From NCBI GenBank assembly GCA_017622795.1, contig JAGAQI010000075.1, positions 6,477-70,476 of the forward strand: a stretch of DNA of 64,000 nt, written 5' to 3'. This document shows, one piece after another, positions 4,438-18,042 of this stretch. The position numbers were made by a program, and so were the translations under genes. The stretch is from Lachnospiraceae bacterium (lineage in GTDB: Bacteria > Bacillota > Clostridia > Lachnospirales > Lachnospiraceae). Below the pieces are notes generated by a model. The model was not told the DNA's origin. It saw only the letters and a program-made list of their open reading frames with translations, and ran no database searches. Position 1 is the first letter of the stretch, and every line of letters begins with the position of its first letter.

Positions 4438-6075
4438 ATGAAAAGCATGAATTATCGCACTATATTCACAATTAAAGAATCAGAAAAAGCAACTGTAGAG
4501 TTGGCAGATGTAGAGGGCTTGAAAGGTCCTGCCGTGGTAAAACGGCTAAAGGGTGCAAATGCCGATATTTACAGGTTGCTTTGTTGCACCCAAAATTTCC
4601 ATATTCCCCGGGTGTTTTTTTGTGAGGAGCAAAGCTGTGAGCTTCTTGTAGCAGAAGAATATGTGGATGGAGAAAATCTGGGTGAACTTCTGCAGAAAAG
4701 GCTGATTTCTGATGAGCAAAAGATTAATTATGCCCTGCAGCTTTGTGAAGCTGTGGGCTTTTTGCATACCCTGAAGCCGACCGTTATTCATAGGGATATC
4801 AAACTCTCCAACATTTTAATCAATGGAAAAAATGAATTGAAGCTGATAGATTTTGATGCGTCCAGACAGTATAAGAATTTCTCAAATGAAGAAGATACTA
4901 GATTGCTCGGAACAAAAGGATATGCTGCTCCGGAGCAGTTTGGGTATTCCCAGACGGATGTGCGCAGCGATATTTATTCCATGGGTGTGGTTTTTCACAA
5001 AATGTGCCCGTTGGAAAATAAAGTGTTGGCAAAACAGTGGGATAAAATTGCTGAAAAATGTACCAGCTTTGACCCGAAAAACCGTTATCAGAATGTGGCG
5101 GAATTAAAGCGGGAATTGGAAAAGCTGGCAGCGTGGAAGAAGGCAAGAAGAATAAAAAACACAGCTTGGATTGGCAGTATAACAGTGGTTTTGGTAGTGG
5201 CAGCGTTGGTGGCAGTATTGTGGCCGAAGGAAACAGAGGCCGGGGATATGGGCGGAATAACTGTGACAACTGCACCGACAACTGCACCGACAACTGTGCC
5301 GACAGATGCACCGACGTTGATACCGACAAGTATACCTACCCCGGAACCAACGGCAACAAGTACACCGACGCCGAAACCAACGGCAACAAATACACCAATG
5401 CCAACGGCAACAAGTGTACCGACGCCGACAATAAAGCCGGAGCTTTCGACGGTTCCGACATCAATAAACCAACACTATTATAAGGGTATGACGGAAGAAA
5501 CGGAACTAATATTAAAGCATGGTTCGGATACTGCGCCGTTACCGGTAACATGGAGTGGGGAATGCTATGATTATGTCACAGGTAAGAATTATTCTATTCC
5601 GATGGATGAGATAGAAATCGGTCCGGGATATATCCGGCTTTTGGATAGCGGACTGATGCAACTGGAACCGTCCATCTATGAGCTTACGATAACGATGCAT
5701 TATGCCAGCAGATGGCCTCAAAGTACCAGCCGGGTGTTAAAAATATATCCGGAAGATGAGTATCCGAAGAAGTCGAATGCAGTGATGGCGACTGGGACAA
5801 ATTATTTTTATTTGAATGATCCCACTGATTTTGTAAAGAATGTTCTGAGTACGGTGACCAGCAAATTCGTAGGGGTATCTGCAGAAATTCCGGGAATGGC
5901 TGCAGTGGAAGTGGATTCTGACTGGTATGAAATTCTTTGCGATGGTAAGGTGATGATTATTCAAAAAGAATTCTTGCAACAGTATTATGAAAACGACCAG
6001 AAAATTAATCTGATTTACCACTTTGATGATGGGAAGAATCAGACGATGGTGATTAATTACAAGGAGACAAGATAA
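4438..6075 (+). CDS. Atypical membrane Ser/Thr protein kinase with extracytoplasmic C-terminal domain (paralog 1)
   Basis: 545 aa; catalytic loop HRDIKLSNIL, DFD in place of DFG (LIDFDASR), APE (GYAAPEQ), VVKRLK lysine, no GxGxxG loop; TM WIGSITVVLVVAALVAVLW; Pro/Thr linker; ~210-aa C-terminal domain. Confidence 0.8.
   Translation: MKSMNYRTIFTIKESEKATVELADVEGLKGPAVVKRLKGANADIYRLLCCTQNFHIPRVFFCEEQSCELLVAEEYVDGENLGELLQKRLISDEQKINYALQLCEAVGFLHTLKPTVIHRDIKLSNILINGKNELKLIDFDASRQYKNFSNEEDTRLLGTKGYAAPEQFGYSQTDVRSDIYSMGVVFHKMCPLENKVLAKQWDKIAEKCTSFDPKNRYQNVAELKRELEKLAAWKKARRIKNTAWIGSITVVLVVAALVAVLWPKETEAGDMGGITVTTAPTTAPTTVPTDAPTLIPTSIPTPEPTATSTPTPKPTATNTPMPTATSVPTPTIKPELSTVPTSINQHYYKGMTEETELILKHGSDTAPLPVTWSGECYDYVTGKNYSIPMDEIEIGPGYIRLLDSGLMQLEPSIYELTITMHYASRWPQSTSRVLKIYPEDEYPKKSNAVMATGTNYFYLNDPTDFVKNVLSTVTSKFVGVSAEIPGMAAVEVDSDWYEILCDGKVMIIQKEFLQQYYENDQKINLIYHFDDGKNQTMVINYKETR
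5265..5437 (+). repeat. In-frame low-complexity Pro/Thr linker with imperfect tandem DNA repeats
   Basis: Reiterated acaactgcaccgaca and ccaacggcaacaa(g/a)tacacc units encode TTAPTTAPTT...PTATSTPTPKPTATNTPMPTATS. Confidence 0.8.
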
Positions 6076-6512
6076 TGGGGAACAAGGCGGGAGAAAAAGA
6101 TACTGCGTTTCTGCAGTCGGAGTTGAAAAAGACAGAGAACCTGGAACAATTTCTTCAGGAAAATTCCGAGGTTTTGAAACCAAAAACTGTACAGGAATAC
6201 TTAAATGAAATGTTGATAAAGTATAATTTGGAGAAAAGTGAAATCATTCGGAAATCAGGGTTATCGGGAACGTATGCCTACCAGATTTTTGACGGCAAGA
6301 AAAGTGCCGGACGGGACAAACTCATTCAGCTGGCATTTGGTTTTCCACTTAATCTGGAGGAGACCCAGAAACTGCTCCGCTTTGGTGGTCACAATGAGCT
6401 GTATGTGAAAAAGAAGAGAGAAGCTTTCGTGATGTATGCGTTGGGAAAAGAATATGATATTAATCAGGTAAACGATTTATTATATCAAAATGAGGAGAAG
6501 ACCTTTGAGTAG
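6075..6512 (+). CDS. Small XRE-like HTH protein (paralog 1), translationally coupled to kinase 1
   Basis: 145 aa; start overlaps the kinase stop (TAATG); HTH-like segment IIRKSGLSGTYAYQIFDGKKSAGRDKLIQLAFGFPLNLEETQKLL; paralogs at 6655, 12242 and 13026. Confidence 0.65.
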   Translation: MGNKAGEKDTAFLQSELKKTENLEQFLQENSEVLKPKTVQEYLNEMLIKYNLEKSEIIRKSGLSGTYAYQIFDGKKSAGRDKLIQLAFGFPLNLEETQKLLRFGGHNELYVKKKREAFVMYALGKEYDINQVNDLLYQNEEKTFE

Positions 6513-6526
6513 GTCTTCTTTTTTTT
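6497..6526 (+). terminator. Intrinsic terminator
   Basis: GAAGACCT (6497-6504) / AGGTCTTC (6511-6518) followed by T8. Confidence 0.7.
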
Positions 6527-6552
6527 AGTGTTTTTTTAACAAAATGGAAAAA

Positions 6553-6596
6553 TTATGCTGGCGGCACAAGAATTTCTGAAATAATTGCTTTAATAT
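6553..6596 (+). promoter_or_regulatory. Degenerate copy of the island palindrome box plus -10 (TAATAT)
   Basis: TTATGCTG-G-CGGCACAA (2 mismatches in the right arm) at 6553-6569; TAATAT at 6591-6596, the same 21-nt gap as the seven strong copies. Confidence 0.4.
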
Positions 6597-6654
6597 AAAT
6601 ATGTGGCATATCTGAGCAGATGGCCATGGGAGAAAAGAACGAGGTGTGCACTGC

Positions 6655-7113
6655 ATGAAAAAAGCAACGGAAGAATTGTTGAATGAACTGAAAGAGGCAA
6701 AGGCAATCAGCGAGTTTACCAGTATAAACGAGGGAGAATTTGAGAATATTTCTTTAACAGAAATTCTTGCACAAATGTTGGAAAAATATAAAAAGGCAAG
6801 AATAGATGTCATCAAAGCGGCAAGATTTGATTATACCTACGGATATCAGATTTTTGACGGAAAAAAGCGGCCCAAGAGGGAAAAACTGCTGCAGATGGCC
6901 TTTGGCTTTCCACTAAGCCTGGAGGATACCAACCGCTTACTACGTGCCGGTGGTGTAAATGGGCTGTATGTCCGCTGCAAGCGGGATGTAATCTGCATGT
7001 ACTGTCTTCATAAGGGGATGAGCCTGGAGGAATGTAATTCCTATTTATATCAGCTGGGAGAAGAGACTCTCATTGAGGAGGATAATGATGGGAGTGAAGG
7101 AATGAGAAAATAA
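6655..7113 (+). CDS. Small XRE-like HTH protein (paralog 2)
   Basis: ATG at 6655 (the ORF track begins at GTG 6646); YTYGYQIFDGKKRPKREKLLQMAFGFPLSLEDTNRLLRAGG aligns with the other paralogs. Confidence 0.65.
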   Translation: MKKATEELLNELKEAKAISEFTSINEGEFENISLTEILAQMLEKYKKARIDVIKAARFDYTYGYQIFDGKKRPKREKLLQMAFGFPLSLEDTNRLLRAGGVNGLYVRCKRDVICMYCLHKGMSLEECNSYLYQLGEETLIEEDNDGSEGMRK

Positions 7114-7160
7114 TTAAGAAATTAATTATAAATATACTTATTTAGAGAAGGAGAAAGAAA

Positions 7161-7346
7161 ATGATTTTACTATTAATTATCTATTGGATTGCCGGTTATT
7201 GGGCATATGGAGTTGTATTTTATGAAGGAAAGATTGTTATGGCAAGACAAGGGCAGATTTTTGCAACAAAATTAGTGCAGGGACTTGTTTTTGGTTGGTT
7301 ATGGATTCCGGTGGCACTCGTAAAGAAAATTTTTGGAATAAGATAA
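7161..7346 (+). CDS. Small two-TM membrane protein
   Basis: 61 aa; RBS GAAGGAGAAAG; two hydrophobic segments. Confidence 0.5.
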   Translation: MILLLIIYWIAGYWAYGVVFYEGKIVMARQGQIFATKLVQGLVFGWLWIPVALVKKIFGIR

Positions 7347-7371
7347 AGAAAAAATAAGGAGATTTTTAGAA

Positions 7372-8220
7372 ATGTGTAAAAGGTGTGAGTTGTGCCATTC
7401 AACTGATGCATATGAAACGAGGTTCGGTATTCAGCTTTGTATGGATTGTATGGATGGTTTTTGGAAAATAATGAAAAATGATACGATTGCAATACAAAAG
7501 TATGCGAAGGAAGAAATGTTTCCAAATGCAACGATGAATGCAAAACAGCAGATTGTTGGTTTAGCAAAGAGAAAGCTGGATGAAGGTCTTGAAAAGCTGG
7601 AACCCAGACATGTTGAAAAAATCGAACCATTACATATGGAGAAAGTTGAGACAAGAAATAAGATGACTACGGAAGACACTAAAGAAAATACTAAAGAAAA
7701 TATAAAACCACAGCAAGGAATTACTTTAACTTCCCCGGAGAGCTTGGACGATTTGTCTGCAAAGTGCAATATTATTTATGTGATTGGCATAATTGTGATG
7801 GCGCTTTTCTTTGGGAATATTATTCTCGGCATAATTTTTGGGCTGGTTGCAGGGTGGATTATAAAAGGACCGATGATATTAAAATCCGCAACCTATAAAT
7901 TTAGGACAATGGAATTTTTAATGCCTGCAAATATTACTCTTGAGGAAATATACAGGGAAATTTCCCCAAAGTTAAATTCACAGGAGCTGGATGTTACTTT
8001 ACAAGAAAATAATTTGGAGTTTCATCATGGTTCTATTCACTATCAGTTTTTGACGGACGGAACGGAAGGTACATTCCGGCTGAGATGGTATTATTCGGTG
8101 GCAAAAGCTATGCTTGGCTCAAGAGATATCCATGACTATAAGGTAGTAAGACAGGATACAGGTCTCATTGCGTATGCGATTCAGAATGTGTCGGTGGAAA
8201 ACGGAGATACGGTAAAATAA
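7372..8220 (+). CDS. Zinc-ribbon / TM / C-terminal domain protein, function unknown
   Basis: 282 aa; N-terminal CxxC...CxxC (CKRCELC...CMDC); TM IIYVIGIIVMALFFGNIILGIIFGLVAGWII; RBS AAGGAGA. Confidence 0.6.
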   Translation: MCKRCELCHSTDAYETRFGIQLCMDCMDGFWKIMKNDTIAIQKYAKEEMFPNATMNAKQQIVGLAKRKLDEGLEKLEPRHVEKIEPLHMEKVETRNKMTTEDTKENTKENIKPQQGITLTSPESLDDLSAKCNIIYVIGIIVMALFFGNIILGIIFGLVAGWIIKGPMILKSATYKFRTMEFLMPANITLEEIYREISPKLNSQELDVTLQENNLEFHHGSIHYQFLTDGTEGTFRLRWYYSVAKAMLGSRDIHDYKVVRQDTGLIAYAIQNVSVENGDTVK

Positions 8221-8300
8221 AAAAGCACCGGTACCATATTATTGTTTGAAGGTATCGGTTTTGATGCTACGAAATCAGTGATGGTTAACTAAATTATTTA

Positions 8301-8375
8301 TCATAATAAGAAAACTCGTCAAGGATGCGGATTCGTCCTGCTTTTCAGCAAGTCCTTGACGAGTTTTTATTATGA
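8301..8375 (+). terminator. Long composite hairpin, probable terminator
   Basis: TCATAATAAGAAAACTCGTCAAGGA (8301-8325) pairs with TCCTTGACGAGTTTTTATTATGA (8353-8375); 27-nt interior with small hairpins. Confidence 0.6.
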
Positions 8376-8446
8376 TATCCTGAACTTTGATTCCTCCCCA
8401 ACTTTCCGTATGTCTGATTATGATGTGGAGTATCTTTTTTGTGAAA

Positions 8447-8490
8447 TTATGCTGACAGCATAAGAAAAATAAATTAGAAAGTTTTATAAT
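8447..8490 (+). promoter_or_regulatory. Island palindrome box TTATGCTG-A-CAGCATAA plus -10 TATAAT
   Basis: Perfect 8+1+8 dyad at 8447-8463; TATAAT at 8485-8490 after a 21-nt gap; no -35 hexamer; 74 nt upstream of the 8564 start. Confidence 0.6.
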
Positions 8491-8563
8491 AGGATTGCAG
8501 CAAGCCCTCGGGCTTTATCGAACGGGTAAAAGCTGGTAGATAGTAAAGACATAGGAGGAAAAC

Positions 8564-9553
8564 ATGAAAAAGAATATTATTTGCATTATTTTGTTATCAA
8601 TGGTTTGTATGATGGCTGGCTGCCAGTCCAAGGAGGAAAAGGCTTATAAGACTTTAGATAAGGTTGAAGAGCTGACGGCAGAGGGAAAATATGAGGATGC
8701 CCTTAAAAAGCTTGATAAAATCCGGGAAGTAATTGACGTGGAGGATGCAGAGGAAGAAGTACTGTTGGAACGTAAGTATGCAAAGATTCCGGAGGGGGAT
8801 CTTACGGAAAAGGTTCAGGCAGACATAGAATTGGTTGGGGCTACTGACGAAGAACTGATAGGCTTTGACATTTCCTCTGTTACAGAAATTATTACAGACA
8901 GGGATACCATTGAGGATTATCTGGATTCCTATTTTTATGGGGATTGGTATAAGGAAGGTAAAAATAAGTCAATTGAATTTAACGAGTGGGAACTTGACGA
9001 GGAACAATATGGTGTATCCTATATGTTCCGTGTGTCAAATGAATACATAGATAACATTGTTGTAAAAATGTATGAAATGGGTAAGGCTGACAAAGTTTTT
9101 TGCGTTATGCTGGGCAGTTATTATCTGGGGCAGTTACTTGATGGTTACGCGAGCTACTATGAAATTTCTGTTGTGGATTCGAAAGGGAATGTGGAATCAT
9201 ACAGAGATCTTTCCAAGGATGACTTTGAGGAATTAGAGGCAGAGGTTGCCATGGTTTCTGACATGGCCATGATAGAGGAAGAAATTGTTGAAACCACCCA
9301 TGATTCTTTTCTGGAACGGAAAAAAGGAGAGTTTTCCAATATTTTGGATACGGCGTTTGTTTCTTCCGAAATCGTAGATTATTCCGTTACATATTCGGAA
9401 GGAAGCATTATTTGTAGCATGAAAGTGAAATATTATGAGAATAAGTATTCTGCTTTATGGGGTGGAAATTCGCAGATTTTCTACGTAACAGGAACATTTA
9501 ATTACAATAAAAGTACCGGTACCGCATCATTAGTTTCTTTGAATGTGGAGTAA
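8564..9553 (+). CDS. Lipoprotein, function unknown
   Basis: 329 aa; signal peptide with lipobox MMAGC; RBS AGGAGG. Confidence 0.7.
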   Translation: MKKNIICIILLSMVCMMAGCQSKEEKAYKTLDKVEELTAEGKYEDALKKLDKIREVIDVEDAEEEVLLERKYAKIPEGDLTEKVQADIELVGATDEELIGFDISSVTEIITDRDTIEDYLDSYFYGDWYKEGKNKSIEFNEWELDEEQYGVSYMFRVSNEYIDNIVVKMYEMGKADKVFCVMLGSYYLGQLLDGYASYYEISVVDSKGNVESYRDLSKDDFEELEAEVAMVSDMAMIEEEIVETTHDSFLERKKGEFSNILDTAFVSSEIVDYSVTYSEGSIICSMKVKYYENKYSALWGGNSQIFYVTGTFNYNKSTGTASLVSLNVE

Positions 9554-9571
9554 GAAAAGGAGAAACAGAGG

Positions 9572-10198
9572 ATGGAGATTTTTTCGATTATATTGGGCAT
9601 TGTAGTGATACTTGTAATTATTGCATATATCTCGTCACAGATAAGAAAAAACCAGATGGATGAAGAAAGTAAGACAGATGAGAAAAGTGAAGAAGATGCA
9701 TTGTTTGAAGGCATCGATTTTGACGCAATGAAACCGGAAGAAGTTATTCCTTTAGAAGTGTATGAAGTAGAAGAGAATGTAATTACTGAAGAGGAACCGG
9801 TTCCCGGGGAACAGCAAGCTTCAACGCAAGAACCTCAAGCAGACGCTGCTCCTGCTAAACCGGTATTTGTTACAGATGCAGAAACAAGCAGCGGACAAAC
9901 GTATGAAAAGGTTCTTTCCACAGAAGATAAGAGGGAATGGATTGCAAATTTCGTTAGTATTAAGCGGTTTGTTGCTGCGGGTTGGACCTGCATGGGACTC
10001 GGTCTGGGATTCATTTTAGGGCGGCTTCTTGGCGATAATGTTGTCATGGTCTTGCTGATTATACTTGGAGGATTTATCGGGGGAGTATTCGGAACAAACT
10101 CTGTAGGCGCTGCCATGATGAAAGTTATTGCGGCAGAGCAAAGTATTTTAAATGAGGAACTGCTGAAAGAAATTTTAAAACGGTTGGAGGAAAAGTAA
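9572..10198 (+). CDS. Membrane protein with acidic linker and C-terminal glycine-zipper TM pair
   Basis: 208 aa; N-terminal TM; acidic stretch; GLGLGFILGRLLG...LGGFIGGVFG glycine-zipper segments. Confidence 0.65.
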   Translation: MEIFSIILGIVVILVIIAYISSQIRKNQMDEESKTDEKSEEDALFEGIDFDAMKPEEVIPLEVYEVEENVITEEEPVPGEQQASTQEPQADAAPAKPVFVTDAETSSGQTYEKVLSTEDKREWIANFVSIKRFVAAGWTCMGLGLGFILGRLLGDNVVMVLLIILGGFIGGVFGTNSVGAAMMKVIAAEQSILNEELLKEILKRLEEK

Positions 10199-10374
10199 AA
10201 GGGTGAATGAAACGTTTGTATTAACAGGATGTGGAGAGTACACCCTTCAAGAGAATTCAAACAGTAGTGTGCTTAAAGCAAGCAACCGGAGAACAAATAG
10301 AAGATTTGCTTTTAGCCGCTAAAAAGGCAGGTGTAACAGCAACGGATTTGCAGAAACTTGGATTGGAATAATGC

Positions 10375-10411
10375 GAAAAGCATGTCGAGTTTAATCTGGC
10401 ATGCTTTTTTT
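10375..10411 (+). terminator. Intrinsic terminator
   Basis: AAAAGCATG (10376-10384) / CATGCTTTT (10400-10408) running into a T tract. Confidence 0.6.
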
Positions 10412-10425
10412 CAATATAACTTCTT

Positions 10426-10454
10426 TTGACTTTTATCGGAAATAGGTATATACT
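10426..10454 (+). promoter_or_regulatory. Sigma-A type promoter for the kinase 2 operon
   Basis: TTGACT (10426-10431), 17-nt spacer, TATACT (10449-10454). Confidence 0.6.
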
Positions 10455-10484
10455 ATACGTAGATTTTTAAAGGTGGGGAAACCT

Positions 10485-12221
10485 ATGGGATTCGAGTATA
10501 TTACGTTGGAGACATTAAAGAAATCGGATAAAGCCATTATCGAAGTTGCCATGATGGATGACTATCCGGAAAGGGTAGTTGTAAAGCACTTAAAAGGTGT
10601 AAACATCAATTTGTTTCACCAGATATCTTTTTTACATAGTGTTTATATCCCAAAGATTTATAAATGCGAGTTGGATGGAGAATGGTTTGTTGTTATAGAA
10701 GAGTATCTGGAAGGTGAGAATCTGGAAAAATATTTGCGCGAACACCGCCTTACGGATAAGCAGAAATTGGATATTGCCCTGCAATTATGTGAGGCAGTAA
10801 AGTGTCTGCATGCGTTGCAACCGCCAATTATTCACCGTGATATTAAACCGCATAATATTATTGTTAACGAACATGGAGCATTAAAATTAATAGATTTTGA
10901 TGCTTCCCGCTATTATAGAGAAGATGATAACCGTCAGGACACCCGTCTCCTTGGTACTCCGGAATATGCACCGCCGGAACAATACGGCTATTCCCAGACA
11001 GACGTCCGCAGCGATATCTATTCTATGGGTATGGTATTTAAGGAATTGAATCTGACGGAAAAGAAGTTTCTTGTTTCCGAATGGGAAAAAATGGTTGGCA
11101 AGTGCAGAAATTTTGACCCGAAGCATCGGTACCAGACTGTGGATGAGCTGGAAAAAGAAATTAAGAAAATGGCGTTCTTACGCACGATTACCGGAAAAAC
11201 AGTGCTTGGCTGGACAGCAGCCGTTTTACTGTTATTGATAGTATTGTGGCAAGGCTGTATGCTTACCCGCAATAATGATGCAGGTGCAAGTAATCAAAAT
11301 GAAGTAACCGGTATGCCAACTCCAACGGAGGTTGTGCAGGAATCAGTAACACTGGAGCCGAAAGCAACAAGTACACCTGTGCCAACGGAAACACCAACAC
11401 AAGCGGTTGAACCAACTGCAGAACCAACGGCAACAAATACGCCTGTGCCGACAGAAACGCCAACGCCTGTGCCGACGGAAATGCCGGCGAGTGTAAATTC
11501 GCTGATTCCGGGAGTAGAAACAGTAGAAGAATTGGATGCATATTTTGCAAGTACGAATTTATATGTGTACAATTTTTATCGAAGCATTGCAGAACAAACA
11601 AAATTTTATATCGGTGTGGATAGTTTACTTGATACAAGCTGGAAATTTGATAAAATTACCTTTACAAATTATGAAACCGGGGTGGAAGTAGAGGTTCCGG
11701 CTTCGATGATAGATTTGGAAAGCGAAATCATATCGGTATCTAATGATTTTTTATTGGGGCTGGAAGATACCTATTACCAAGTAATAATATATATAACAAA
11801 TGGTGAGAGTTCACTTCCAGCCATGAGTACGGTAGTTAAAGTTTCCGAAGCTGTGGATGAAACAGGACATATACGTGCATTAGGGCGTGACTGGGTAACA
11901 TTCTATGCGCAGTATCCGACAGATATTATTATCACTTCAAACAGCGAGAATGTTTTGAAGATGGAAAAGCTTTATATTTGCCAAAGTGGTATTTATCCGG
12001 ATGGTATCCCTGAGATTTTGGATGCGGAAATATTAACTGAAGTTAATCCGGCTAATTATGAAATCATGGATGCCGGAAAAATGATGAAGCTTAGTAAAGA
12101 ACTTTTAGCAGGTTATTCTAATGAAAGCCGGGTGATTTTTGCTGCACTATGCAATGATGGAAATTATTGGCGGATTGTAGTAGAATATGATAACGGAAAG
12201 CCATACTGGATGCCACAATAA
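10485..12221 (+). CDS. Atypical membrane Ser/Thr protein kinase with extracytoplasmic C-terminal domain (paralog 2)
   Basis: ATG 10485 behind RBS AAAGGTGGGG (the track starts at GTG 10473); HRDIKPHNII, LIDFDASR, EYAPPEQ; TM; Pro/Thr linker; kinase domain clearly paralogous to 4438-6075, C-terminal domain divergent. Confidence 0.8.
   Translation: MGFEYITLETLKKSDKAIIEVAMMDDYPERVVVKHLKGVNINLFHQISFLHSVYIPKIYKCELDGEWFVVIEEYLEGENLEKYLREHRLTDKQKLDIALQLCEAVKCLHALQPPIIHRDIKPHNIIVNEHGALKLIDFDASRYYREDDNRQDTRLLGTPEYAPPEQYGYSQTDVRSDIYSMGMVFKELNLTEKKFLVSEWEKMVGKCRNFDPKHRYQTVDELEKEIKKMAFLRTITGKTVLGWTAAVLLLLIVLWQGCMLTRNNDAGASNQNEVTGMPTPTEVVQESVTLEPKATSTPVPTETPTQAVEPTAEPTATNTPVPTETPTPVPTEMPASVNSLIPGVETVEELDAYFASTNLYVYNFYRSIAEQTKFYIGVDSLLDTSWKFDKITFTNYETGVEVEVPASMIDLESEIISVSNDFLLGLEDTYYQVIIYITNGESSLPAMSTVVKVSEAVDETGHIRALGRDWVTFYAQYPTDIIITSNSENVLKMEKLYICQSGIYPDGIPEILDAEILTEVNPANYEIMDAGKMMKLSKELLAGYSNESRVIFAALCNDGNYWRIVVEYDNGKPYWMPQ
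11313..11486 (+). repeat. In-frame Pro/Thr-rich linker, low complexity
   Basis: Encodes PTPTEVVQESVTLEPKATSTPVPTETPTQAVEPTAEPTATNTPVPTETPTPVPTE with reiterated cctgtgccgac(a/g)gaaa units. Confidence 0.75.
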
Positions 12222-12697: not shown

Positions 12698-12712
12698 AAT
12701 AAGTAAAATGAA

Positions 12713-12753
12713 GAGAACAAGTAGTGTTTTTAAATACTGCTTGTTCTTTTTTT
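12713..12753 (+). terminator. Intrinsic terminator
   Basis: AGAACAAGTAGT / ACTGCTTGTTCT stem followed by T7. Confidence 0.7.
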
Positions 12754-12769: not shown

Positions 12770-12813
12770 TTATGCTGCCAGCATAACAAGTGGGGTAGGA
12801 AAAGAAGTAAACT
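12770..12813 (+). promoter_or_regulatory. Island palindrome box TTATGCTG-C-CAGCATAA plus -10 TAAACT
   Basis: Perfect dyad at 12770-12786; TAAACT at 12808-12813 after a 21-nt gap. Confidence 0.55.
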
Positions 12814-12870: not shown

Positions 12871-13026
12871 ATGACTATAGTGATGGAATTAAGAAAATGT
12901 ACTGCATGCGGAAAAAAATATAGCTTTAATCCTGCTATAGGACATTTTAACTGTCCACATTGCAGAGGTTTAGGAAAAATCAAAAAGGGGCCGAAGAGAA
13001 AACCCAAGAAGGGAGGAATTTTCTGA
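12871..13026 (+). CDS. 51-aa zinc-ribbon microprotein with basic tail
   Basis: Absent from the ORF track (under 60 aa); RBS AAGGAGGA 7 nt upstream; MTIVMELRKCTACGKKYSFNPAIGHFNCPHCRGLGKIKKGPKRKPKKGGIF has CxxC...CxxC. Confidence 0.5.
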   Translation: MTIVMELRKCTACGKKYSFNPAIGHFNCPHCRGLGKIKKGPKRKPKKGGIF

Positions 13027-13241
13027 TGCAGGAAACCTATAAGAGAGTTGAACTGCTAAAAAAATCTTTGGCAAATGCACTATCTTTAGAAGCCACTAAT
13101 CAAATGCTACGTTTGGGTGGTGAACCGGAATTGTATTCGAAAAACAGACGGGATGCAATTTGTATGTTTTGCATAAATCTGCAGATGGGATTGGAAAAGT
13201 GCAACGAATTGCTGGAGCGGTACGATGAGGTGACACTGTAA
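13026..13241 (+). CDS. Truncated paralog of the island HTH family (C-terminal half only)
   Basis: ATG 13026 overlaps the upstream TGA (TGATG); LSLEATNQMLRLGGEPELYSKNRRDAICMFCI matches the C-terminal half of the paralogs; recognition-helix region absent. Confidence 0.5.
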   Translation: MQETYKRVELLKKSLANALSLEATNQMLRLGGEPELYSKNRRDAICMFCINLQMGLEKCNELLERYDEVTL

Positions 13242-13401: not shown

Positions 13402-13445
13402 TTATGCCGGCAGCATAACAAAATGGACGTGAAGTGAGGTAAGCT
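13402..13445 (+). promoter_or_regulatory. Island palindrome box TTATGCCG-G-CAGCATAA plus weak -10 TAAGCT
   Basis: Dyad with one mismatch at 13402-13418; TAAGCT at 13440-13445 after a 21-nt gap. Confidence 0.45.
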
Positions 13446-13485
13446 GAAATTACAAAGAAACCATTGTAGTGAAGGAGGAACGAAC

Positions 13486-13719
13486 ATGAGCTTAGAAAAC
13501 AAAATAATTGATTATGCAATCAGTCATTATTATGAAATGCCAAAAACAATTCAAAAGAAAATGGTAACGGAAGGAAAGAAGTATATTGAGAGAGAGCATC
13601 CGATTGCAAGTATGTTTATGCCGGATTCGACCAAAGAGAAATGTGTGAAAAGTTATTTTAATTCAAAAGCAAACTGCACATCAATTGGGACTTGTTTTAG
13701 CAAATGTATTAGCGTATAG
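13486..13719 (+). CDS. Hypothetical 77-aa protein
   Basis: RBS GAAGGAGGAA; no recognisable motif; Cys/Ser/Thr-rich C-terminus NCTSIGTCFSKCISV. Confidence 0.5.
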   Translation: MSLENKIIDYAISHYYEMPKTIQKKMVTEGKKYIEREHPIASMFMPDSTKEKCVKSYFNSKANCTSIGTCFSKCISV

Positions 13720-13741
13720 ACGCGGAAAGAGAGGAAATATC

Positions 13742-14128
13742 ATGACTACAGAAAAAGAATTAGCAAACGCTATCGAGAGAAATGAAAATGAAATCGTAAT
13801 TGAAGGCGACTTAAGTAACAAGGTAATTCGAATTAAGGCCACCGGAGCTGTAGCCTGGGGCGCCTGTATTATAGGACTCGGCGCAGTGGTTGCTCTTGGA
13901 ATTGCCACCGCAGGAAGCGGAGGAACAGCTACTCTGATTACGCTACCGGCAATGGGCGCTGCGTTAATGACTACTGCTCCGGTTGCAGTTGCCAGCATGG
14001 GTCTTCCAGCAGCGGTTTCTGCAGTGGGAATTGCTATGGCAGGCGGTGGTTGCGGTGTATTGAATAAGCTCAGGGATTACAAGCTGGTTAAGGTAAGCAA
14101 GGATAAAGTGATTCTTTACCGGAAGTAA
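13742..14128 (+). CDS. Gly/Ala-rich membrane protein (glycine-zipper type)
   Basis: ATG 13742 behind GAGAGGAAA (the track starts earlier, at 13685); soluble N-terminus TEKELANAIERNENEIVIEGDL, then a long Gly/Ala hydrophobic region, then a basic tail. Confidence 0.6.
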   Translation: MTTEKELANAIERNENEIVIEGDLSNKVIRIKATGAVAWGACIIGLGAVVALGIATAGSGGTATLITLPAMGAALMTTAPVAVASMGLPAAVSAVGIAMAGGGCGVLNKLRDYKLVKVSKDKVILYRK

Positions 14129-14129
14129 T

Positions 14130-14173
14130 TTATGCTACCAGCATAACAAACATAAAGCTACAACATATATAAT
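14130..14173 (+). promoter_or_regulatory. Island palindrome box TTATGCTA-C-CAGCATAA plus -10 TATAAT
   Basis: Dyad with one mismatch at 14130-14146, starting 2 nt after the upstream stop codon; TATAAT at 14168-14173 after a 21-nt gap. Confidence 0.6.
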
Positions 14174-14236
14174 TACAAATGTAAACAACAGACAAGTAAG
14201 TCTGAAAACGAATTTAATCCATAGGAGGAAAATGAA

Positions 14237-15205
14237 ATGAAAAAAGATTTTTATGAAGCATTAGAACAAGACATCGTAGGTTTAGGACTAGCAGAAGAGG
14301 AAAAGAGTAAGTTGTTAAAGCATATTATGCAGCTGAAGGCTCAGAAACTGAATATCATGGTAGTCGGAGGAACCGGCTGTGGTAAGAGTTCCACTATCAA
14401 CGCATTATTTGATGCTCCGGTTGCCAAAGTAGGAGAACGTCCGGATCCGGAAACCATGACGATTGAAAAGTATGAATTAGACAACCTGATTTTGTGGGAC
14501 ACACCGGGACTTGGTGATGGTAAAGAAGCCGACAAAAAGCATGCAAAAAACATTATTGACAAGCTTGTTGAAAAGGATAGCGATGGTAAGGCACTAATCG
14601 ATTTGGTATTAGTAATTCTCGATGGTTCCAGTAGAGACATGGGAACGTCCTTTGAGTTAATTAACAATGTGATCATTCCTAATTTAGGCGAAGAGCAAAA
14701 GGAAAGAATTCTGGTTGCTATCAACAAAGCTGATATGGCTAAGCCAAGACATTGGGATTACAACAAAAATGAACCGGATGAGATTCTGAAAGAGTTTCTG
14801 GAAGAGAAAATCAAGTCCGTGAAAAAGAGAATCAAGGAATCTACCGGCGTTGATGTAAATCCGATTTATTATTGCGCAGGCGATATGGATGATGGTGAGC
14901 AGCGCAAGGCATACAATCTGACAAAGCTCTTATGTTGGATGATTAAGGCAACTCCAACAGAAAAAAGAATTGTTTATGCAAATAATATGAATCAACAGCC
15001 TGAAATATGGGTAGATGACGATGAAATCATGGACTATGGTCAGGAAATCAGAAAAGATATCTGGGGCTCTGTTACAGAGGGTGCAGGTGTTGGCGGTGCC
15101 ATTGGTGAAGCAATCGGAACTATTTTCCATTGTGGACCGATAGGAAGAGCTGTCGGCACGGCAGTTGGTGCTGTAGTAGGATTCTTCTGTGGTATCTTTG
15201 GTTAA
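14237..15205 (+). CDS. Small P-loop GTPase (MMR_HSR1/YfjP-like) with C-terminal glycine-zipper tail (paralog 1)
   Basis: 322 aa; G1 GGTGCGKSS, G3 WDTPGLGD, G4 NKAD; C-terminal GAGVGGAIGEAIGTIF...GRAVGTAVGAVVGFFCGIFG. Confidence 0.8.
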   Translation: MKKDFYEALEQDIVGLGLAEEEKSKLLKHIMQLKAQKLNIMVVGGTGCGKSSTINALFDAPVAKVGERPDPETMTIEKYELDNLILWDTPGLGDGKEADKKHAKNIIDKLVEKDSDGKALIDLVLVILDGSSRDMGTSFELINNVIIPNLGEEQKERILVAINKADMAKPRHWDYNKNEPDEILKEFLEEKIKSVKKRIKESTGVDVNPIYYCAGDMDDGEQRKAYNLTKLLCWMIKATPTEKRIVYANNMNQQPEIWVDDDEIMDYGQEIRKDIWGSVTEGAGVGGAIGEAIGTIFHCGPIGRAVGTAVGAVVGFFCGIFG

Positions 15206-15213
15206 TAGAGTTG

Positions 15214-15255
15214 GAAGCCCAAGCGTGATTTGTACCGTTTGGGCTTCTCTTAATA
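15214..15255 (+). terminator. Probable terminator
   Basis: GAAGCCCAAGCG / CGTTTGGGCTTC stem; weak T tract (TCTTAATAAT). Confidence 0.55.
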
Positions 15256-15265
15256 ATAAACAACT

Positions 15266-15309
15266 TTATGCTGCCAGCATAACAAACCATGGTAAAAACA
15301 AGTTATAAT
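15266..15309 (+). promoter_or_regulatory. Island palindrome box TTATGCTG-C-CAGCATAA plus -10 TATAAT
   Basis: Perfect dyad at 15266-15282; TATAAT at 15304-15309 after a 21-nt gap. Confidence 0.6.
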
Positions 15310-15354
15310 AAAATTACAAAATAACACAAAACAAATCCAAAGGGGGTAAATAAT

Positions 15355-15591
15355 ATGTTTTTTGATTTTATTTCTGATTTAGTAATTGGCGCCTGTGATC
15401 TGGGATTTAAGCTGGATAGTGCTATATTTGGTGATTCTTCTGCTGATGCCGATGCACTTATGAAAGTGATTTTAAATGCGACTCAGAATGAAGAGGCAGA
15501 GGATACATACGTAGAAGCTGACGTTAAGTCCGCGGACGGAACAAGTACGATAGCTACAAGTATTGAAGGCATTAAAAAACACGTTTATTAA
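15355..15591 (+). CDS. Small hydrophobic-acidic protein with conserved KHVY C-terminal tail (paralog 1)
   Basis: 78 aa; RBS AAGGGGG; hydrophobic N-terminus, acidic middle, C-terminus IATSIEGIKKHVY matching 17262-17474. Confidence 0.6.
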   Translation: MFFDFISDLVIGACDLGFKLDSAIFGDSSADADALMKVILNATQNEEAEDTYVEADVKSADGTSTIATSIEGIKKHVY

Positions 15592-15617
15592 TAGGAACCG
15601 TTAAGGAGGAAAAAGAG

Positions 15618-16322
15618 ATGAAGAGAAATATTATGTTAGTCGGAGGAACCGGCTATGGTAAAAGTTCTACAATCAATGCATTGTGTAATACTCCGGTGGC
15701 AGCGGTAGCGGCTCTTGAAGAACCGGAAACAAAAGAAATCAGGAAGTATGAAACGGATAACATGGTTCTTTGGGACACACCGGGAATCGGTAGCAGTGTA
15801 GAAGAAGACAGTAAAAATATAGAGGCTTTAAAAAGTATGCTTCGTGAAAAAGACGAAGCAGGAAATCTGTTAATTGCTCAGGTGGTGCTTGTGATGGATG
15901 CCGGAAGCAGAGATATGGGGACTTCTTTTGAACTGCTCAATGACGTAATTGTTCCAAACTTAGGTGACAACCGTAAAGACAGAATTTTAGTGGCTTTAAA
16001 CCGTTGCGATGCAGTAAAGCCTAGAAACTGGAACTATGAAGCAAATGAGCCGGATGAAGTACTTAAGCAATTTCTAGAGGAAAAGGCAGAATCTGTAAAA
16101 ACAAGAATTTCAGAGTCTATCGGTATAGATGTTGAAGTTATTTATTACTGTGCCGGCGAGACAGAGAATGACGAACAGAGTCCGGCTTATAATTTGGATA
16201 AACTGGTTGCTAAGCTGATGGAGGTGACAACAACTGAGAGTGTGGTGGCTGAAAGAAACATCACTGTACAAAAGAAGGAATCTTTTATCAAGAGAATGAT
16301 CCGCAGACTTTTTGGTCGCTAA
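15618..16322 (+). CDS. Small P-loop GTPase (paralog 2)
   Basis: 234 aa; G1 GGTGYGKSS, G3 WDTPGIG, G4 variant NRCD; basic amphipathic C-terminus KESFIKRMIRRLFGR; RBS AAGGAGGA. Confidence 0.8.
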   Translation: MKRNIMLVGGTGYGKSSTINALCNTPVAAVAALEEPETKEIRKYETDNMVLWDTPGIGSSVEEDSKNIEALKSMLREKDEAGNLLIAQVVLVMDAGSRDMGTSFELLNDVIVPNLGDNRKDRILVALNRCDAVKPRNWNYEANEPDEVLKQFLEEKAESVKTRISESIGIDVEVIYYCAGETENDEQSPAYNLDKLVAKLMEVTTTESVVAERNITVQKKESFIKRMIRRLFGR

Positions 16323-16330
16323 TTCATAAT

Positions 16331-16369
16331 GAGGCAGACAGTATAAGCTGTTTGCCTCTCCTTCTTTTA
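16331..16369 (+). terminator. Intrinsic terminator
   Basis: GAGGCAGACAG / CTGTTTGCCTC stem followed by TCCTTCTTTTAT. Confidence 0.65.
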
Positions 16370-16387
16370 TGGCGAAAAGAACTGATA

Positions 16388-16431
16388 TTATGCTGTCAGC
16401 ATAACAATATGAGTTACAAAAGATCTATACT
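16388..16431 (+). promoter_or_regulatory. Island palindrome box TTATGCTG-T-CAGCATAA plus -10 TATACT
   Basis: Perfect dyad at 16388-16404; TATACT at 16426-16431 after a 21-nt gap. Confidence 0.6.
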
Positions 16432-16477
16432 TAAGATACAAGATAACAAATGAATTGTTACATAAGAGGAGGTAAAT

Positions 16478-17161
16478 ATGAATAGCGTATATAGACAAAA
16501 TGATATTGAAAGAAATGCCAAGAGAGCAGGGTTTTACCCAATGGATATTGTGGTAGTCGGAGGAACCGGAGCCGGAAAATCATCTACAATGAATGCACTT
16601 TTTGAGAAGGAAGTAGCGAAGGTAGGACACGGATGTGACCCGGAAACCAGCAAGAACAGTCATAAAGAATTGAACCAGTATTTACGTTTCTGGGATACAC
16701 CGGGATTCGGAGACAGCGTGGAAAAGGATAAAAAATATGCAAAGGACTTAATTAAGCTGCTAAATGAGTCCTGGACGGATAATGGAAGAACAATATATGG
16801 TGCAATCGATATGGTTATCGTTATTTTGGATGGTTCTGGTAGGGATATGGGAACCACCTATAAAATTTTGAATGAGGTAGTGCTTCCAAACTTCCCAAGT
16901 GATCGGATTTTGATGGCAATCAACCAGGCAGATGCAGCAAAGAGTCCAAAGCATTGGAATAATCAAAAAAATGAACCGGATGAAGTGTTGAAGAGCTTTT
17001 TAGAAGAAAAAGCAATTTCTGTAAAACGGAGAATTGAAGAAGCCACTGGAACCAGAGTATGTAAGCCGGTGTACTATTCAGCAGAAAAGGAATATAACGT
17101 TGAAAAATTATTAGATATGATAATTGATAATATGCCAACTTCGAGAAGAAAGATACAATAA
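16478..17161 (+). CDS. Small P-loop GTPase (paralog 3)
   Basis: 227 aa; G1 GGTGAGKSS, G3 WDTPGFGD, G4 variant NQAD; shares the DMGT..(L/I)N.V..PN and NEPDE(I/V)LK.FLEEK blocks with paralogs 1 and 2. Confidence 0.8.
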   Translation: MNSVYRQNDIERNAKRAGFYPMDIVVVGGTGAGKSSTMNALFEKEVAKVGHGCDPETSKNSHKELNQYLRFWDTPGFGDSVEKDKKYAKDLIKLLNESWTDNGRTIYGAIDMVIVILDGSGRDMGTTYKILNEVVLPNFPSDRILMAINQADAAKSPKHWNNQKNEPDEVLKSFLEEKAISVKRRIEEATGTRVCKPVYYSAEKEYNVEKLLDMIIDNMPTSRRKIQ

Positions 17162-17164
17162 AGT

Positions 17165-17208
17165 TTATGCTGTCAGCATAACAATTGAACGGAGAAAAGA
17201 AATATAAT
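17165..17208 (+). promoter_or_regulatory. Island palindrome box TTATGCTG-T-CAGCATAA plus -10 TATAAT
   Basis: Perfect dyad at 17165-17181, starting 4 nt after the GTPase 3 stop; TATAAT at 17203-17208 after a 21-nt gap. Confidence 0.6.
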
Positions 17209-17261
17209 TAAATCATAAAGAAACACAAAAAAGAAAAAAGATGTTTAAGGGAGCAAAAAAA

Positions 17262-17474
17262 ATGGCATTAGGTTTATTAACTAGTTTAGCATTAGGAGCA
17301 GTAGGGTTGGTCAGTGCAGGAGCAATTGTTACAAACAGTTCCGGTGGTTCTGTTTATTACGGTTCTACTTATGAGGATAACGATGAAGAATGGGATGATG
17401 AGTGGGAAGATGAAGATGAGGAAATCACAGAGGTGGCTACCAGTATTAGAGGCATCAGCAAGCATGTGTATTAA
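17262..17474 (+). CDS. Small hydrophobic-acidic protein with conserved KHVY C-terminal tail (paralog 2)
   Basis: ATG 17262 behind AAGGGAG (the track starts at 17241); hydrophobic N-terminus MALGLLTSLALGAVGLVSAGAIV, acidic run EDNDEEWDDEWEDEDEE, C-terminus VATSIRGISKHVY. Confidence 0.6.
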   Translation: MALGLLTSLALGAVGLVSAGAIVTNSSGGSVYYGSTYEDNDEEWDDEWEDEDEEITEVATSIRGISKHVY

Positions 17475-17498
17475 ATATAACATTAGTTAGTTCATAAT

Positions 17499-17543
17499 AA
17501 ATCCTTTCTTGTTTTTCTAAAGTATCTACAAGGATTTTTATTG
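17499..17543 (+). terminator. Intrinsic terminator
   Basis: AAATCCTT (17499-17506) / AAGGATTT (17530-17537) followed by TTTATT. Confidence 0.6.
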
Positions 17544-17691
17544 AAAGGCCTTATCACCCTTGCAGTAAGATAAAAATCCCGGTGACTCAGCAGGAGACAA
17601 AGTCCGGTGAAGCAAAAAGCTTTGCCGGAACTTAGAGGGGATGAAAAGATAGTAACTTGGCTAACATAAATTTTTTTACGGAGATGGAAAC

Positions 17692-18042
17692 ATGATCTTA
17701 GGAAACTTATTAAAAGCAGTTAGCAGTACGGTAGGCACTGGAATTTCTCTGAAGAATGCAACAAAGAGTGCTCCGAACTCTATGGGATGTTACAAAATTT
17801 ACTACCATGGCTTAAAGTATGTTGGAAAATCAGAGGATGGCATCCGAAAGCGTTTTGTGCAGTATTACAATGGTACAACAGCGCATTATCCGTCTGCTAA
17901 AAAGATTTACCAGCATCGGAATGAGATTACGGTAACCTGGCAGGTGTGCAACAGCCGTGAAGAGACCCGTGCCCTGGAGGCAAAGTGGATTAGGCAGTAT
18001 GATCCGGAATGGAACGACAGAAGGGGATGGGAAAGTGATTAA
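17692..18042 (+). CDS. Stand-alone GIY-YIG domain protein
   Basis: 116 aa; GCYKIYY...LKYVGKS (GIY...YIG-like), conserved Arg in IRKRF, Glu in ALEAKWI, Asn in EWND. Confidence 0.6.
   Translation: MILGNLLKAVSSTVGTGISLKNATKSAPNSMGCYKIYYHGLKYVGKSEDGIRKRFVQYYNGTTAHYPSAKKIYQHRNEITVTWQVCNSREETRALEAKWIRQYDPEWNDRRGWESD

Follow-up and report, generated by a model that had tools for sequence, protein, structure and literature searches.

A candidate circuit of receptor-type Ser/Thr kinases, Cro-type regulators and dyad-box promoters beside trpS in an uncultured Lachnospiraceae bacterium

Bacterial Hanks-type Ser/Thr kinases are generally few per genome, pleiotropic and without exclusive partners, as described in a review (PMC4601284). 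Mycobacterium tuberculosis has two systems, PknH-EmbR and PknL-Rv2175c, in which a Hanks kinase that crosses the membrane once and bears an extracellular sensor phosphorylates, on Thr, a DNA-binding protein encoded by the neighbouring gene. A table in the same review places the phosphorylated Thr9 of Rv2175c in an unstructured N-terminal extension. Judged by analogy, these pairs are the closest functional precedents for the locus described here, which occupies positions 4438-18042 of a 64,000-nt window (the whole stretch of DNA analysed; contig JAGAQI010000075.1, assembly GCA_017622795.1) from an uncultured Lachnospiraceae metagenome-assembled genome (MAG). Inspection of open reading frames (ORFs) and profile matches placed this ~13.6-kb block, wholly on the + strand, between trpS, with an adjoining gene for a HAD phosphatase, and sbcD. 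It encodes two kinases (STK1 and STK2) and several helix-turn-helix (HTH) proteins, and it carries eight copies of one dyad promoter box. In our reading, which we hold with a probability of roughly 0.55, the kinase phosphorylates its cognate HTH protein, which in turn activates a local, cassette-like envelope and surface regulon from a resident locus.

The locus shares with the mycobacterial pairs the arrangement of the genes, and phosphorylation of the partner on Thr is predicted here from a conserved Thr10, which by analogy parallels the Thr9 tabulated for the flexible N-terminus of Rv2175c. The regulators are of different types: EmbR belongs to the SARP/OmpR type and carries an FHA domain, and Rv2175c has a winged HTH, whereas the protein found here is a Cro/C1-type HTH protein of ~140 aa without FHA. 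Unlike in the two precedents, the pairing is family-wide (74 of 78 loci), the operator is defined and the regulon is local. Two-component systems and the sigma-I/RsgI systems of Clostridia also connect a variable sensor outside the cell, through a cytoplasmic transmitter, to a DNA-binding output of its own; they too are autoregulated, expand into paralogs within a genome and act on local targets, often surface proteins or glycoside hydrolases. They differ in that the transmitter here is a Hanks Ser/Thr kinase, with no His-Asp phosphorelay, receiver domain or anti-sigma release. In HipBA and HipBST a Ser/Thr kinase gene lies beside the gene of an XRE-type HTH protein that binds dyad operators, and HipB is a structural neighbour of the regulator described here. 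However, HipA and HipT are soluble kinases of another family, whereas the present kinases belong to PF00069, possess a transmembrane (TM) helix, a Pro/Thr linker and an ectodomain, and show no evident growth-arrest logic. The target of HipT is the trpS product (PMC6581861). A HipT-type link through the adjacency to trpS was considered and rejected as coincidence, because the kinases are of another family and sit in the membrane, and only one clade shows the adjacency.

The kinases and the HTH proteins of the block are encoded as follows.

4438..6075, + strand: STK1; Pkinase PF00069 at 104.1 bits against a cut-off of 31.7
6075..6512, + strand: HTH1, a 145-aa XRE/Cro-type protein whose start overlaps the STK1 stop (translational coupling)
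6646..7113, + strand: HTH2, a box-driven XRE-type paralog; probable start ATG at 6655, called with 152 aa in conspecific contig L001
10426..10454, + strand: sigma-70-like promoter TTGACT-17-TATACT of STK2-HTH3, matching the consensus at 10 of 12 positions and already noted in a preliminary description of this DNA
10473..12221, + strand: STK2, paralog of STK1; Pkinase at 101.7 bits against the same cut-off of 31.7; start called at 10485 in L001
12242..12697, + strand: HTH3, a kinase-coupled paralog with the variant recognition helix SYAHNIFNG
13026..13241 (also with a start at 12960), + strand: HTH4 remnant

STK1 consists of a cytoplasmic Hanks-type kinase domain (residues ~1-240), a single TM helix (~243-261), a Pro/Thr-rich linker and an extracellular C-terminal domain of ~215 aa. 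It is 50% identical to STK2 in the catalytic domain and 23% in the extracellular domain. The same gradient is seen among orthologs in species whose TrpS is 93-98% identical, where the catalytic domains are 70-75% identical and the ectodomains reach no more than 30% identity or cannot be aligned; when the STK1 ectodomain was searched by itself, no homolog was found at E <= 1e-3. Both kinases retain the catalytic residues K35 (beta-3 Lys), HRDIKLSN or HRDIKPHN, DFD and APE, and these are conserved in 53 HTH-linked kinases. This subfamily shares the beta-3 Lys, IHRDIKPxNI, IDFDxSR and DTxxLGT..APEQ, carries DFD in place of DFG, and keeps HRD, Asn and APE strictly. Judged by these residues, the two STKs are probably active, although atypical, kinases. 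The Pro/Thr-rich linkers of both are encoded by 12- and 24-nt tandem-like repeats (families D2 and D3; 5258-5435 and 11345-11479), which are likely hotspots for length variation.

HTH1, HTH2 and HTH3 are mutually 42-46% identical. In the AlphaFold2 (AF2) model of HTH1, with a predicted local distance difference test score (pLDDT) of 94.4, a central five-helix domain is flanked by N- and C-terminal helices. Foldseek superimposed this domain on 434 Cro, the N-terminal domain of DdrO and C.AhdI (TMt 0.66-0.77, root-mean-square deviation ~2 A), and the protein as modelled has the five-helix Cro/C1 fold. At the sequence level, the family profile gave weak matches to XRE proteins in the PDB (E ~0.04), and 14 of 48 diverse members matched Pfam HTH_3, down to 5e-10. 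No FHA domain was matched in any family member scanned. Thr10 is Thr in 135 of 146 representatives and Ser in 3, which places it within the top dozen or so positions by conservation; in the HTH1 model it belongs to the low-confidence N-terminal tail. The preliminary description had counted four HTH paralogs. Three are full proteins, but the fourth consists of only the C-terminal ~60 residues of the family, without the HTH, and shares 82% DNA identity over 44 nt with the 3' end of HTH3 (repeat D15); by its sequence this copy is a remnant or decoy rather than a full paralog.

The family is large, with at least 1,317 proteins in a collection reduced at 90% identity and 2,812 clusters at 50% identity (E <= 1e-3; 1,434 at E <= 1e-10), nearly all of 135-150 aa. 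A one-genome-per-species scan with an alignment of 12 closer HTH sequences yielded 78 loci, spanning Lachnospiraceae, Ruminococcus, other Clostridia, Erysipelotrichales, Coriobacteriia (Olsenella, Atopobiaceae), Peptococcaceae and Gastranaerophilales. A Hanks kinase gene adjoins the HTH gene in 74 of these (tblastn with kinase catalytic domains), and the HTH genes of the remaining four lie at contig ends. The gap between the two genes has a median of 200 nt and does not exceed 1.5 kb in 70 of the 74 pairs, and the distance matrices of kinases and HTH proteins correlate with r = 0.68, against a permutation maximum of 0.14. A related MAG (L012, positions 1-10429; GCA_017937905.1) packs several HTH genes and at least three kinases, perhaps four, into 16 kb, and several other MAGs give two separate loci each; the module thus expands into paralogous sets per genome.

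The box is the 17-bp dyad TTATGCTGNCAGCATAA. Eight matches with 0-2 mismatches were found in the window, all inside the block and on the + strand, and a ninth with 3 mismatches lies outside it at 23253; 0.37 matches are expected by chance, and none of 100 shuffles reached nine.

6553..6596, + strand: box promoter 1 (TTATGCTGGCGGCACAA, 21 nt, TAATAT), driving HTH2 and the genes for the small membrane protein p61 and the Zn-ribbon protein ZnTM
8447..8490, + strand: box promoter 2 (perfect dyad, 21 nt, TATAAT), driving the lipoprotein gene and that of the membrane protein p208
12770..12813, + strand: box promoter 3; homology with strain L019 stops at the 3' edge of its dyad (12787)
13402..13445, + strand: box promoter 4, driving the genes for p77 and p128
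14130..14173, + strand: box promoter 5, driving GTPase 1
15266..15309, + strand: box promoter 6, driving KHVY microprotein 1 and GTPase 2
16388..16431, + strand: box promoter 7, driving GTPase 3
17165..17208, + strand: box promoter 8, driving KHVY microprotein 2

In all eight cases the dyad is followed after exactly 21 nt by a TAnnnT hexamer, which is TATAAT, TATACT or TAATAT in six of them. At the position of the -35 hexamer the aligned promoters match TTGACA at only ~2 of 6 bases, and no extended -10 is present. A scan for consensus sigma-70 promoters picked up the STK2 promoter and none of the eight. Since the -10 element is placed at -12 to -7, the dyad spans approximately -50 to -34 and is centred at -41.5, and its half-site centres are separated by 10 bp, as expected of an activator that binds as a dimer in the class II position. 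A dyad abutting the -35 region of a promoter with a weak -35, bound by a dimeric protein of Cro/C1 fold, is also known from lambda CI at OR2/PRM and from the C-proteins of restriction-modification systems (C.AhdI, C.Esp1396I). These often activate their own genes from a box centre near that found here, and both C-proteins are among the best structural matches to HTH1 (Foldseek). They differ in having no kinase control and one or two promoters, whereas the present locus combines eight promoters with several paralogs and a partner kinase that is conserved. An RNA-level role of the palindrome was considered and rejected, since it lies upstream of the -10 element and its stem would close a loop of just 1 nt, or of 3 nt if the stem had 7 bp.

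The distinction that the preliminary description drew between a sensing layer and an output layer is borne out by the distribution of the boxes: the kinase operons have none, and HTH2 and the putative effector units each follow one. Its statement that all putative effector genes use the box applies to these units but not to a GIY-YIG gene at the end of the block, for which no box was found and whose membership in the regulon is doubtful. The base triplet after the box is GAA at the two boxes that follow STK1-HTH1 and CAA at the six that follow STK2-HTH3. Because of this difference and of the differing recognition helix of HTH3, it is possible that there are two parallel sub-regulons.

In other species, too, HTH2 orthologs are preceded by this box at an unchanged register, as are unrelated cargo genes; the ortholog of box 1 stands before HTH2 orthologs in loci L012, L014-16, L020-22 and L031. 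A generalised pattern was defined as a 7-3-7 dyad (<=1 mispair) with a TGC-N5-GCA core, followed after 20-22 nt by TAnnnT. It occurs at 75 sites in the 1.16 Mb of the 78 loci, compared with 1.4 in Markov shuffles (~50-fold), and it is present in 45 of the loci, many of the sites lying 84-108 nt before an HTH start codon. The dyad varies between lineages. Close relatives carry TTATGC..GCATAA, loci labelled Ruminococcus or Clostridia GTATGC..GCATAC, many Lachnospiraceae GTGTGCA..TGCACAC and Erysipelotrichales GTCTGC..GCAGAC, and one Oscillospiraceae locus has GGATGCA..TGCATCC. The recognition helix tracks the type of dyad among the HTH genes with such a site, reading ...TYGYQIFDG... with TTATGC and ...TYGHQIFNG... 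with GTGTGC. Because the box keeps its register in other species, is enriched near HTH genes and covaries with the recognition helix, it is very likely the operator of the HTH proteins, as far as such patterns tell. The first gene 3' of the dyad encodes, across the family (n=58), an HTH protein in 22 cases, a kinase in 1 and another protein in 35; the 22 HTH genes point to autoregulation. The 35 other genes mostly encode signal-peptide, lipoprotein or membrane proteins, and Pfam matches among dyad-driven genes include Big_2 (4), GH5 (2), LRR, SLH, DUF4230, Lgt, Zn-ribbons, patatin, PP2C and NERD. In 2.9 million viral contigs, the exact box gave 9 single matches, which is the chance level and indicates that the module is not phage-borne. 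The generalised pattern gave 60 strand-specific matches in metagenome loci that match the exact box (L106-L225; at least 120 single-copy loci from many biomes) together with the 9 viral loci, and in view of their excess over chance some of these may be real promoters of this system elsewhere.

The relatives of the locus bear on where it came from. Upstream of the block the window carries a UvrD/PcrA-like helicase gene, the T-box leader, trpS and the gene for the Cof-type HAD phosphatase, in this order.

2244-2506: T-box leader ahead of trpS; RF00230, 101.9 bits
2596-4409: trpS-HAD

Ten loci with trpS-HAD (L014-16, L019-22, L030, L031, L046) were recovered through the HTH. They represent at least six other species (TrpS 93-98% identical) and a second strain, and retain helicase-trpS-HAD as far as the contig extends. 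In all ten, trpS-HAD is followed by an STK-HTH core with the same box and then by differing cargo: Transposase_31, Uma2 and a 990-aa protein alongside a HerA-like ATPase in L014-16; multi-Zn-ribbon proteins in L021; and, in L022, a 720-aa protein ahead of a box that drives a 183-aa protein and an Lgt paralog, with sbcD following at a distance from HAD of ~6.8 kb, compared with 13.9 kb in the window. The second strain, L019, which serves as the GTDB representative, has an HTH1 identical to that of the window, and shared segments are 92-99% identical. Collinearity with the window extends to 12787, immediately behind the box at 12770-12786, and L019 then diverges into a box, a NERD gene (332 aa; 16739-17737), another box, a Zn51-like gene and a 506-aa gene. 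It also carries a 2.4-kb insertion (3605-6030; window 2194-2197) between uvrD and the trpS leader, which consists of a perfect box, a -10 element and the gene for a 766-aa signal-peptide protein with Big_2 domains. As the cargo of L019 differs and one breakpoint coincides with a box, the cargo appears to consist of promoter-carrying cassettes. STK1 starts 29 nt past the HAD stop with neither a terminator nor a consensus promoter in the gap, and in L020, L021 and L046 the kinase ORF directly adjoins the HAD stop or overlaps it; for these reasons STK1-HTH1 may be read through from the tRNA-Trp-controlled trpS operon.

In composition, the AT-richness that had been noted by eye for the intergenic regions is supported by windowed GC and by GC content at third codon positions (GC3). 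GC is 0.35-0.41 in the block and 0.42-0.47 in the flanks, and GC3 is 0.27-0.40 in the cargo and STK2 against 0.43-0.57 in the flanks. STK1, HTH1 and HTH2, at 0.43-0.48, are backbone-like. Every paralog family of the block is confined to it within the window, and, as in the preliminary description, no tRNA, integrase or transposase domain or bordering direct repeat was found at the block by tRNA scan, profile and repeat searches. The preliminary description had proposed a self-contained block inserted between trpS/HAD and sbcD. Alignment of the relatives at this junction upholds the variability of the cargo but not the insertion, as the kinase-HTH core is present in all ten loci; nor is the regulon confined to the HAD-sbcD interval, in view of the cassette between uvrD and trpS in L019. 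The cargo alone is variable and AT-rich, and the core is anchored after trpS-HAD. We therefore consider the block, with somewhat better than even confidence, to be a chromosomally resident signalling locus and not a foreign island.

The output genes comprise three GTPases and a set of other proteins, and all classes of genes named in the preliminary description (kinases, GTPases, glycine-zipper proteins, lipoprotein, Zn-ribbon proteins, KHVY microproteins and GIY-YIG protein) were recovered.

14237..15205, + strand: GTPase 1, AIG1/Toc/IRG-like TRAFAC GTPase with a glycine-zipper tail anchor; MMR_HSR1 and AIG1 above cut-off
15618..16322, + strand: GTPase 2, soluble paralog; AIG1 above cut-off
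16478..17161, + strand: GTPase 3, soluble paralog; AIG1 above cut-off

The three are mutually 54-55% identical, carry the motifs GGTGxGKSS (G1), WDTPG (G3) and N[KRQ]xD (G4), and score 35.0, 29.1 and 33.7 bits with Pfam AIG1 (cut-off 27). They thereby resemble the AIG1/GIMAP, Toc34/33 and IRG (p47) members of the septin-like TRAFAC GTPases. The model of GTPase 1 (pLDDT 72.6) is nearest to Toc34/33, Irga6/Irgb6 and GIMAP7 (Foldseek E ~1e-7), and GTPase 1 is tail-anchored like Toc34 and the GIMAPs. However, the template-modelling scores (TM-scores) are only 0.4-0.5 and the identities 15-22%, and the present proteins are bacterial and stand under the dyad box. Orthologs of GTPase 1 are common (65% identical, ~334 aa, same Gly-rich tail), and one of them, from records named Eubacterium sp., is present in 572 collection blocks. 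In these records the cluster (L017/L018, 9790-12306) encodes a 45-aa protein, a 334-aa GTPase, a 227-aa GTPase and a DUF6106 protein without a dyad box, and adjoins a type III CRISPR-Cas locus and guaB. Because that pair has no box, the tail-anchored and soluble pair was apparently recruited under the box in the present lineage. By analogy, the pairing suggests dimerisation-dependent GTPases. Fused double-GTPase proteins of 455-557 aa also exist (P0121-P0141).

The remaining cargo is as follows.

7161..7346, + strand: p61, 61-aa two-TM membrane protein; a homolog stands behind a box in L030
7372..8220, + strand: ZnTM, 282-aa protein with an N-terminal Zn-ribbon (CxxC..CxxC) and a TM segment; no family match
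8564..9553, + strand: 329-aa lipoprotein, lipobox MAGC
9572..10198, + strand: p208, 208-aa membrane protein with a C-terminal glycine zipper (GxxxG at 142, 146, 150, 166 and 170)
12871..13026, + strand: Zn51, 51-aa Zn-ribbon protein (CxxC..CxxC); a 62%-identical copy stands behind a different box in L019
13254..13418, + strand: 3' remnant of a NERD-domain gene, a 54-aa ORF just before the box at 13402; intact (332 aa) in L019
13486..13719, + strand: p77, 77-aa protein
13742..14128, + strand: p128, 128-aa Gly/Ala-rich, glycine-zipper-like membrane protein; phrog_25580 at 2.7e-9
15355..15591, + strand: KHVY microprotein 1, 78 aa, acidic, ending in SIEGIKKHVY
17241..17474, + strand: KHVY microprotein 2, 77 aa, with an N-terminal hydrophobic segment and an acidic repeat, ending in SIRGISKHVY
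17692..18042, + strand: GIY-YIG domain protein; PF01541 at 1.8e-7, no box upstream

Runs of GxxxG are present in all three places where glycine zippers had been described, namely p208, p128 and the tail of GTPase 1. PADLOC, PHROGs and NCBIfam gave a specific family for no cargo protein. Among the ~200 fetched loci the KHVY C-terminal motif occurs in this species only. The acidic repeat of KHVY microprotein 2 differs in length between strains, the protein having 77 aa here and 87 aa in L007 (2461), with gene calls of 70-80 aa.

Gene content, promoter geometry, conservation and enrichment of the dyad, kinase-HTH linkage and cargo turnover were observed, and we propose the following mechanism. 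STK1 and STK2 would sense an extracellular cue through their fast-evolving C-terminal ectodomains. The HTH protein coupled to each, translationally or transcriptionally (HTH1 or HTH3), would be phosphorylated by its kinase, most likely at Thr10. A dimer of the HTH protein would then bind the dyad centred at ~-41.5 and recruit RNA polymerase to promoters that have no -35 element. This would switch on HTH2, as a feed-forward or positive loop, and seven cargo units, whose products are small membrane proteins, the lipoprotein, glycine-zipper proteins and the tail-anchored GTPase with its two soluble partners. In this scheme the cargo cassettes are exchanged between species and strains, while the kinase-HTH core stays after trpS-HAD.

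Several points weigh against this mechanism. Phosphorylation, DNA binding and co-induction are all inferred, and the same applies to the phosphotransfer, the acceptor residue, the sign of the regulation, the assignment of HTH proteins to boxes and the signal. The N-lobe of the kinases is atypical: there is no GxGxxG loop and no evident alpha-C Glu in the 53 related kinases, no conserved acidic residue lies between K35 and the hinge, and the Pfam match begins only at profile position ~55. For this reason catalytic competence is an assumption. No cognate PP2C phosphatase is encoded within the block, and the HTH copies of the window match no Pfam or NCBIfam model. Under the strict pattern, 33 of the 78 loci have no dyad. 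The constant position of the core at the trpS-HAD junction comes from a biased sample, since the loci were chosen via the HTH, and relatives with an empty junction may exist. Shared phylogeny confounds both the covariation and the mirror-tree signal. Of the XRE proteins characterised so far, most act as repressors, and a dyad reaching the -35 region could repress rather than activate.

The main rival uses the same parts with the opposite sign: the HTH protein would be an XRE repressor, the dyad would occlude RNA polymerase, and kinase signalling would relieve the repression. DdrO, HipB, ImmR and SinR, XRE/Cro-C1 kin that include structural neighbours, are generally known to repress, the dyad abuts the -35 region, and phosphorylation of Rv2175c reportedly lowers its DNA binding. 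Against this, the eight promoters, having neither a recognisable -35 nor an extended -10, should be weak unaided, and the fixed 21-nt phasing across distant taxa fits an activator that contacts RNA polymerase, whereas a repressor needs none; lambda CI at OR2 and the C-proteins are generally known to activate from this position. Phosphorylation in an unstructured N-terminus, as tabulated for Rv2175c (T9) and EthR (PMC4601284), would suit a repressor. On balance we consider repression unlikely, though it deserves the most attention among the alternatives. That the box is no HTH operator at all, but a dispersed MITE- or REP-like repeat or the -35 element of an alternative sigma factor, is very improbable. 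Copies of the box do lie in 59-70-nt repeat families that are 63-74% identical, so that spread or duplication of an element is conceivable. However, its two-fold symmetry is perfect, whereas sigma elements are asymmetric; it stands in a single orientation just upstream of genes at a fixed distance from the -10; the orthologous box before HTH2 is kept in other species while the flanks diverge; it is enriched around HTH-family genes and covaries with the recognition helix; and no sigma factor gene was found in the block by profile scans.

Two further rivals concern the block as a whole. It might be an inducible anti-phage or competition defence island, in which the kinases detect attack and the GTPases, glycine-zipper proteins and GIY-YIG protein are effectors of the abortive-infection type. 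The kinase domains match PD-T4-6 and mad6 (at the domain level only) and the GTPases LeoA/mad8 in PADLOC v2; GTPase 1 is structurally nearest to the immunity GTPases IRG and GIMAP; AIG-type GTPases have been described among the effectors of conflict systems (PMC7159879); NERD, a HerA-like ATPase and patatin are encoded in cargo elsewhere; and hypervariable ectodomains with strain-level cargo turnover would be in keeping with such a role. On the other hand, no complete known system was found and the PADLOC v2 matches are all generic (kinase domain, P-loop/GTPase, LeoA N-terminus). The cargo across the family is mostly secreted, surface or envelope proteins and not nucleases, the sensing of phage through an extracellular domain would be unusual, the GTPase pair of Eubacterium sp. 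has no box and stands in an ordinary chromosomal context, and the GIY-YIG gene has no box either. We regard a defence island as improbable. A slightly poorer prospect still is a horizontally acquired, self-contained island comprising all 13.6 kb. It would explain the low GC and GC3, the solely non-housekeeping content, the variable HAD-sbcD distance and the difference in cargo between strains, but it is at odds with the missing integrase, transposase, tRNA and flanking repeat, with the backbone-like GC3 of STK1, HTH1 and HTH2, and with the core's identical place after trpS-HAD in every related locus recovered, with core genes that in several species abut or overlap the HAD stop. The L019 box cassette outside the interval and the chance-level frequency of the exact box in viral contigs also speak against it.

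The locus may belong to a more general class. It can be proposed, tentatively and with less than even confidence, that a receptor kinase, a dedicated ~140-aa Cro-type HTH protein and a TGC-N5-GCA dyad at -41.5 constitute widespread 'Ser/Thr two-component systems', which run a strain-specific envelope and GTPase programme here. The features that would mark such a class, namely hypervariable ectodomains, a conserved N-terminal phospho-acceptor Thr, autoregulation and promoter cassettes swapped between strains at the operator, are put forward jointly with it and just as tentatively; its proposed distribution is gut Clostridia, Erysipelotrichales and Coriobacteriia. No description of the kinase-XRE module, or of these GTPases in such a context, was found in the literature searched, the coverage of which was incomplete, so that a prior description is possible. 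New here are the family-wide pairing across phyla, a Cro-type HTH family without a Pfam or NCBIfam model, an operator that can be read from the sequence and covaries with the protein, and a regulon that is local and cassette-like. A kinase, its DNA-binding partner and its operator travelling together would be a counter-example to the pleiotropic Hanks kinases. As in two-component systems, the sensor, the transmitter, the output and the target promoters would all be readable from sequence, and kinase-substrate specificity and operator recognition would be directly testable, as covarying helix-dyad pairs are already visible. The system would also offer a handle on environmental sensing and surface change in abundant, little-studied gut Lachnospiraceae, Ruminococcus and Coriobacteriia. 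The strain-level turnover of box cassettes suggests that a shared operator helps new genes to join an existing circuit.

Transcription units in the block are partly delimited by hairpins.

6492..6523, + strand: intrinsic terminator after HTH1, a 13-bp stem with a T-run
10375..10409, + strand: terminator after p208, a hairpin with a T-run
12710..12751, + strand: strong terminator after HTH3, free energy -22 kcal/mol
15213..15248, + strand: hairpin after GTPase 1, free energy -20 kcal/mol, with a T-poor tail that makes its status as a terminator uncertain
16331..16358, + strand: terminator after GTPase 2

The alternation of terminators and boxes described earlier thus applies to about half of the units, but four of the eight boxes have no terminator upstream. 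Beyond the block, the + strand carries all long ORFs of the window from 167 to ~50 kb, and two contigs of the same species (L001 and L006) are 99.99-100% identical to the window. The downstream flank consists of sbcD, sbcC and the gene for a GH127/GH25 protein. This 1,211-aa protein (22652-26287), encoded directly after sbcC, combines a GH127 (beta-L-arabinofuranosidase-like) and a GH25 (lysozyme) domain in one polypeptide and is conserved in the conspecific contigs.

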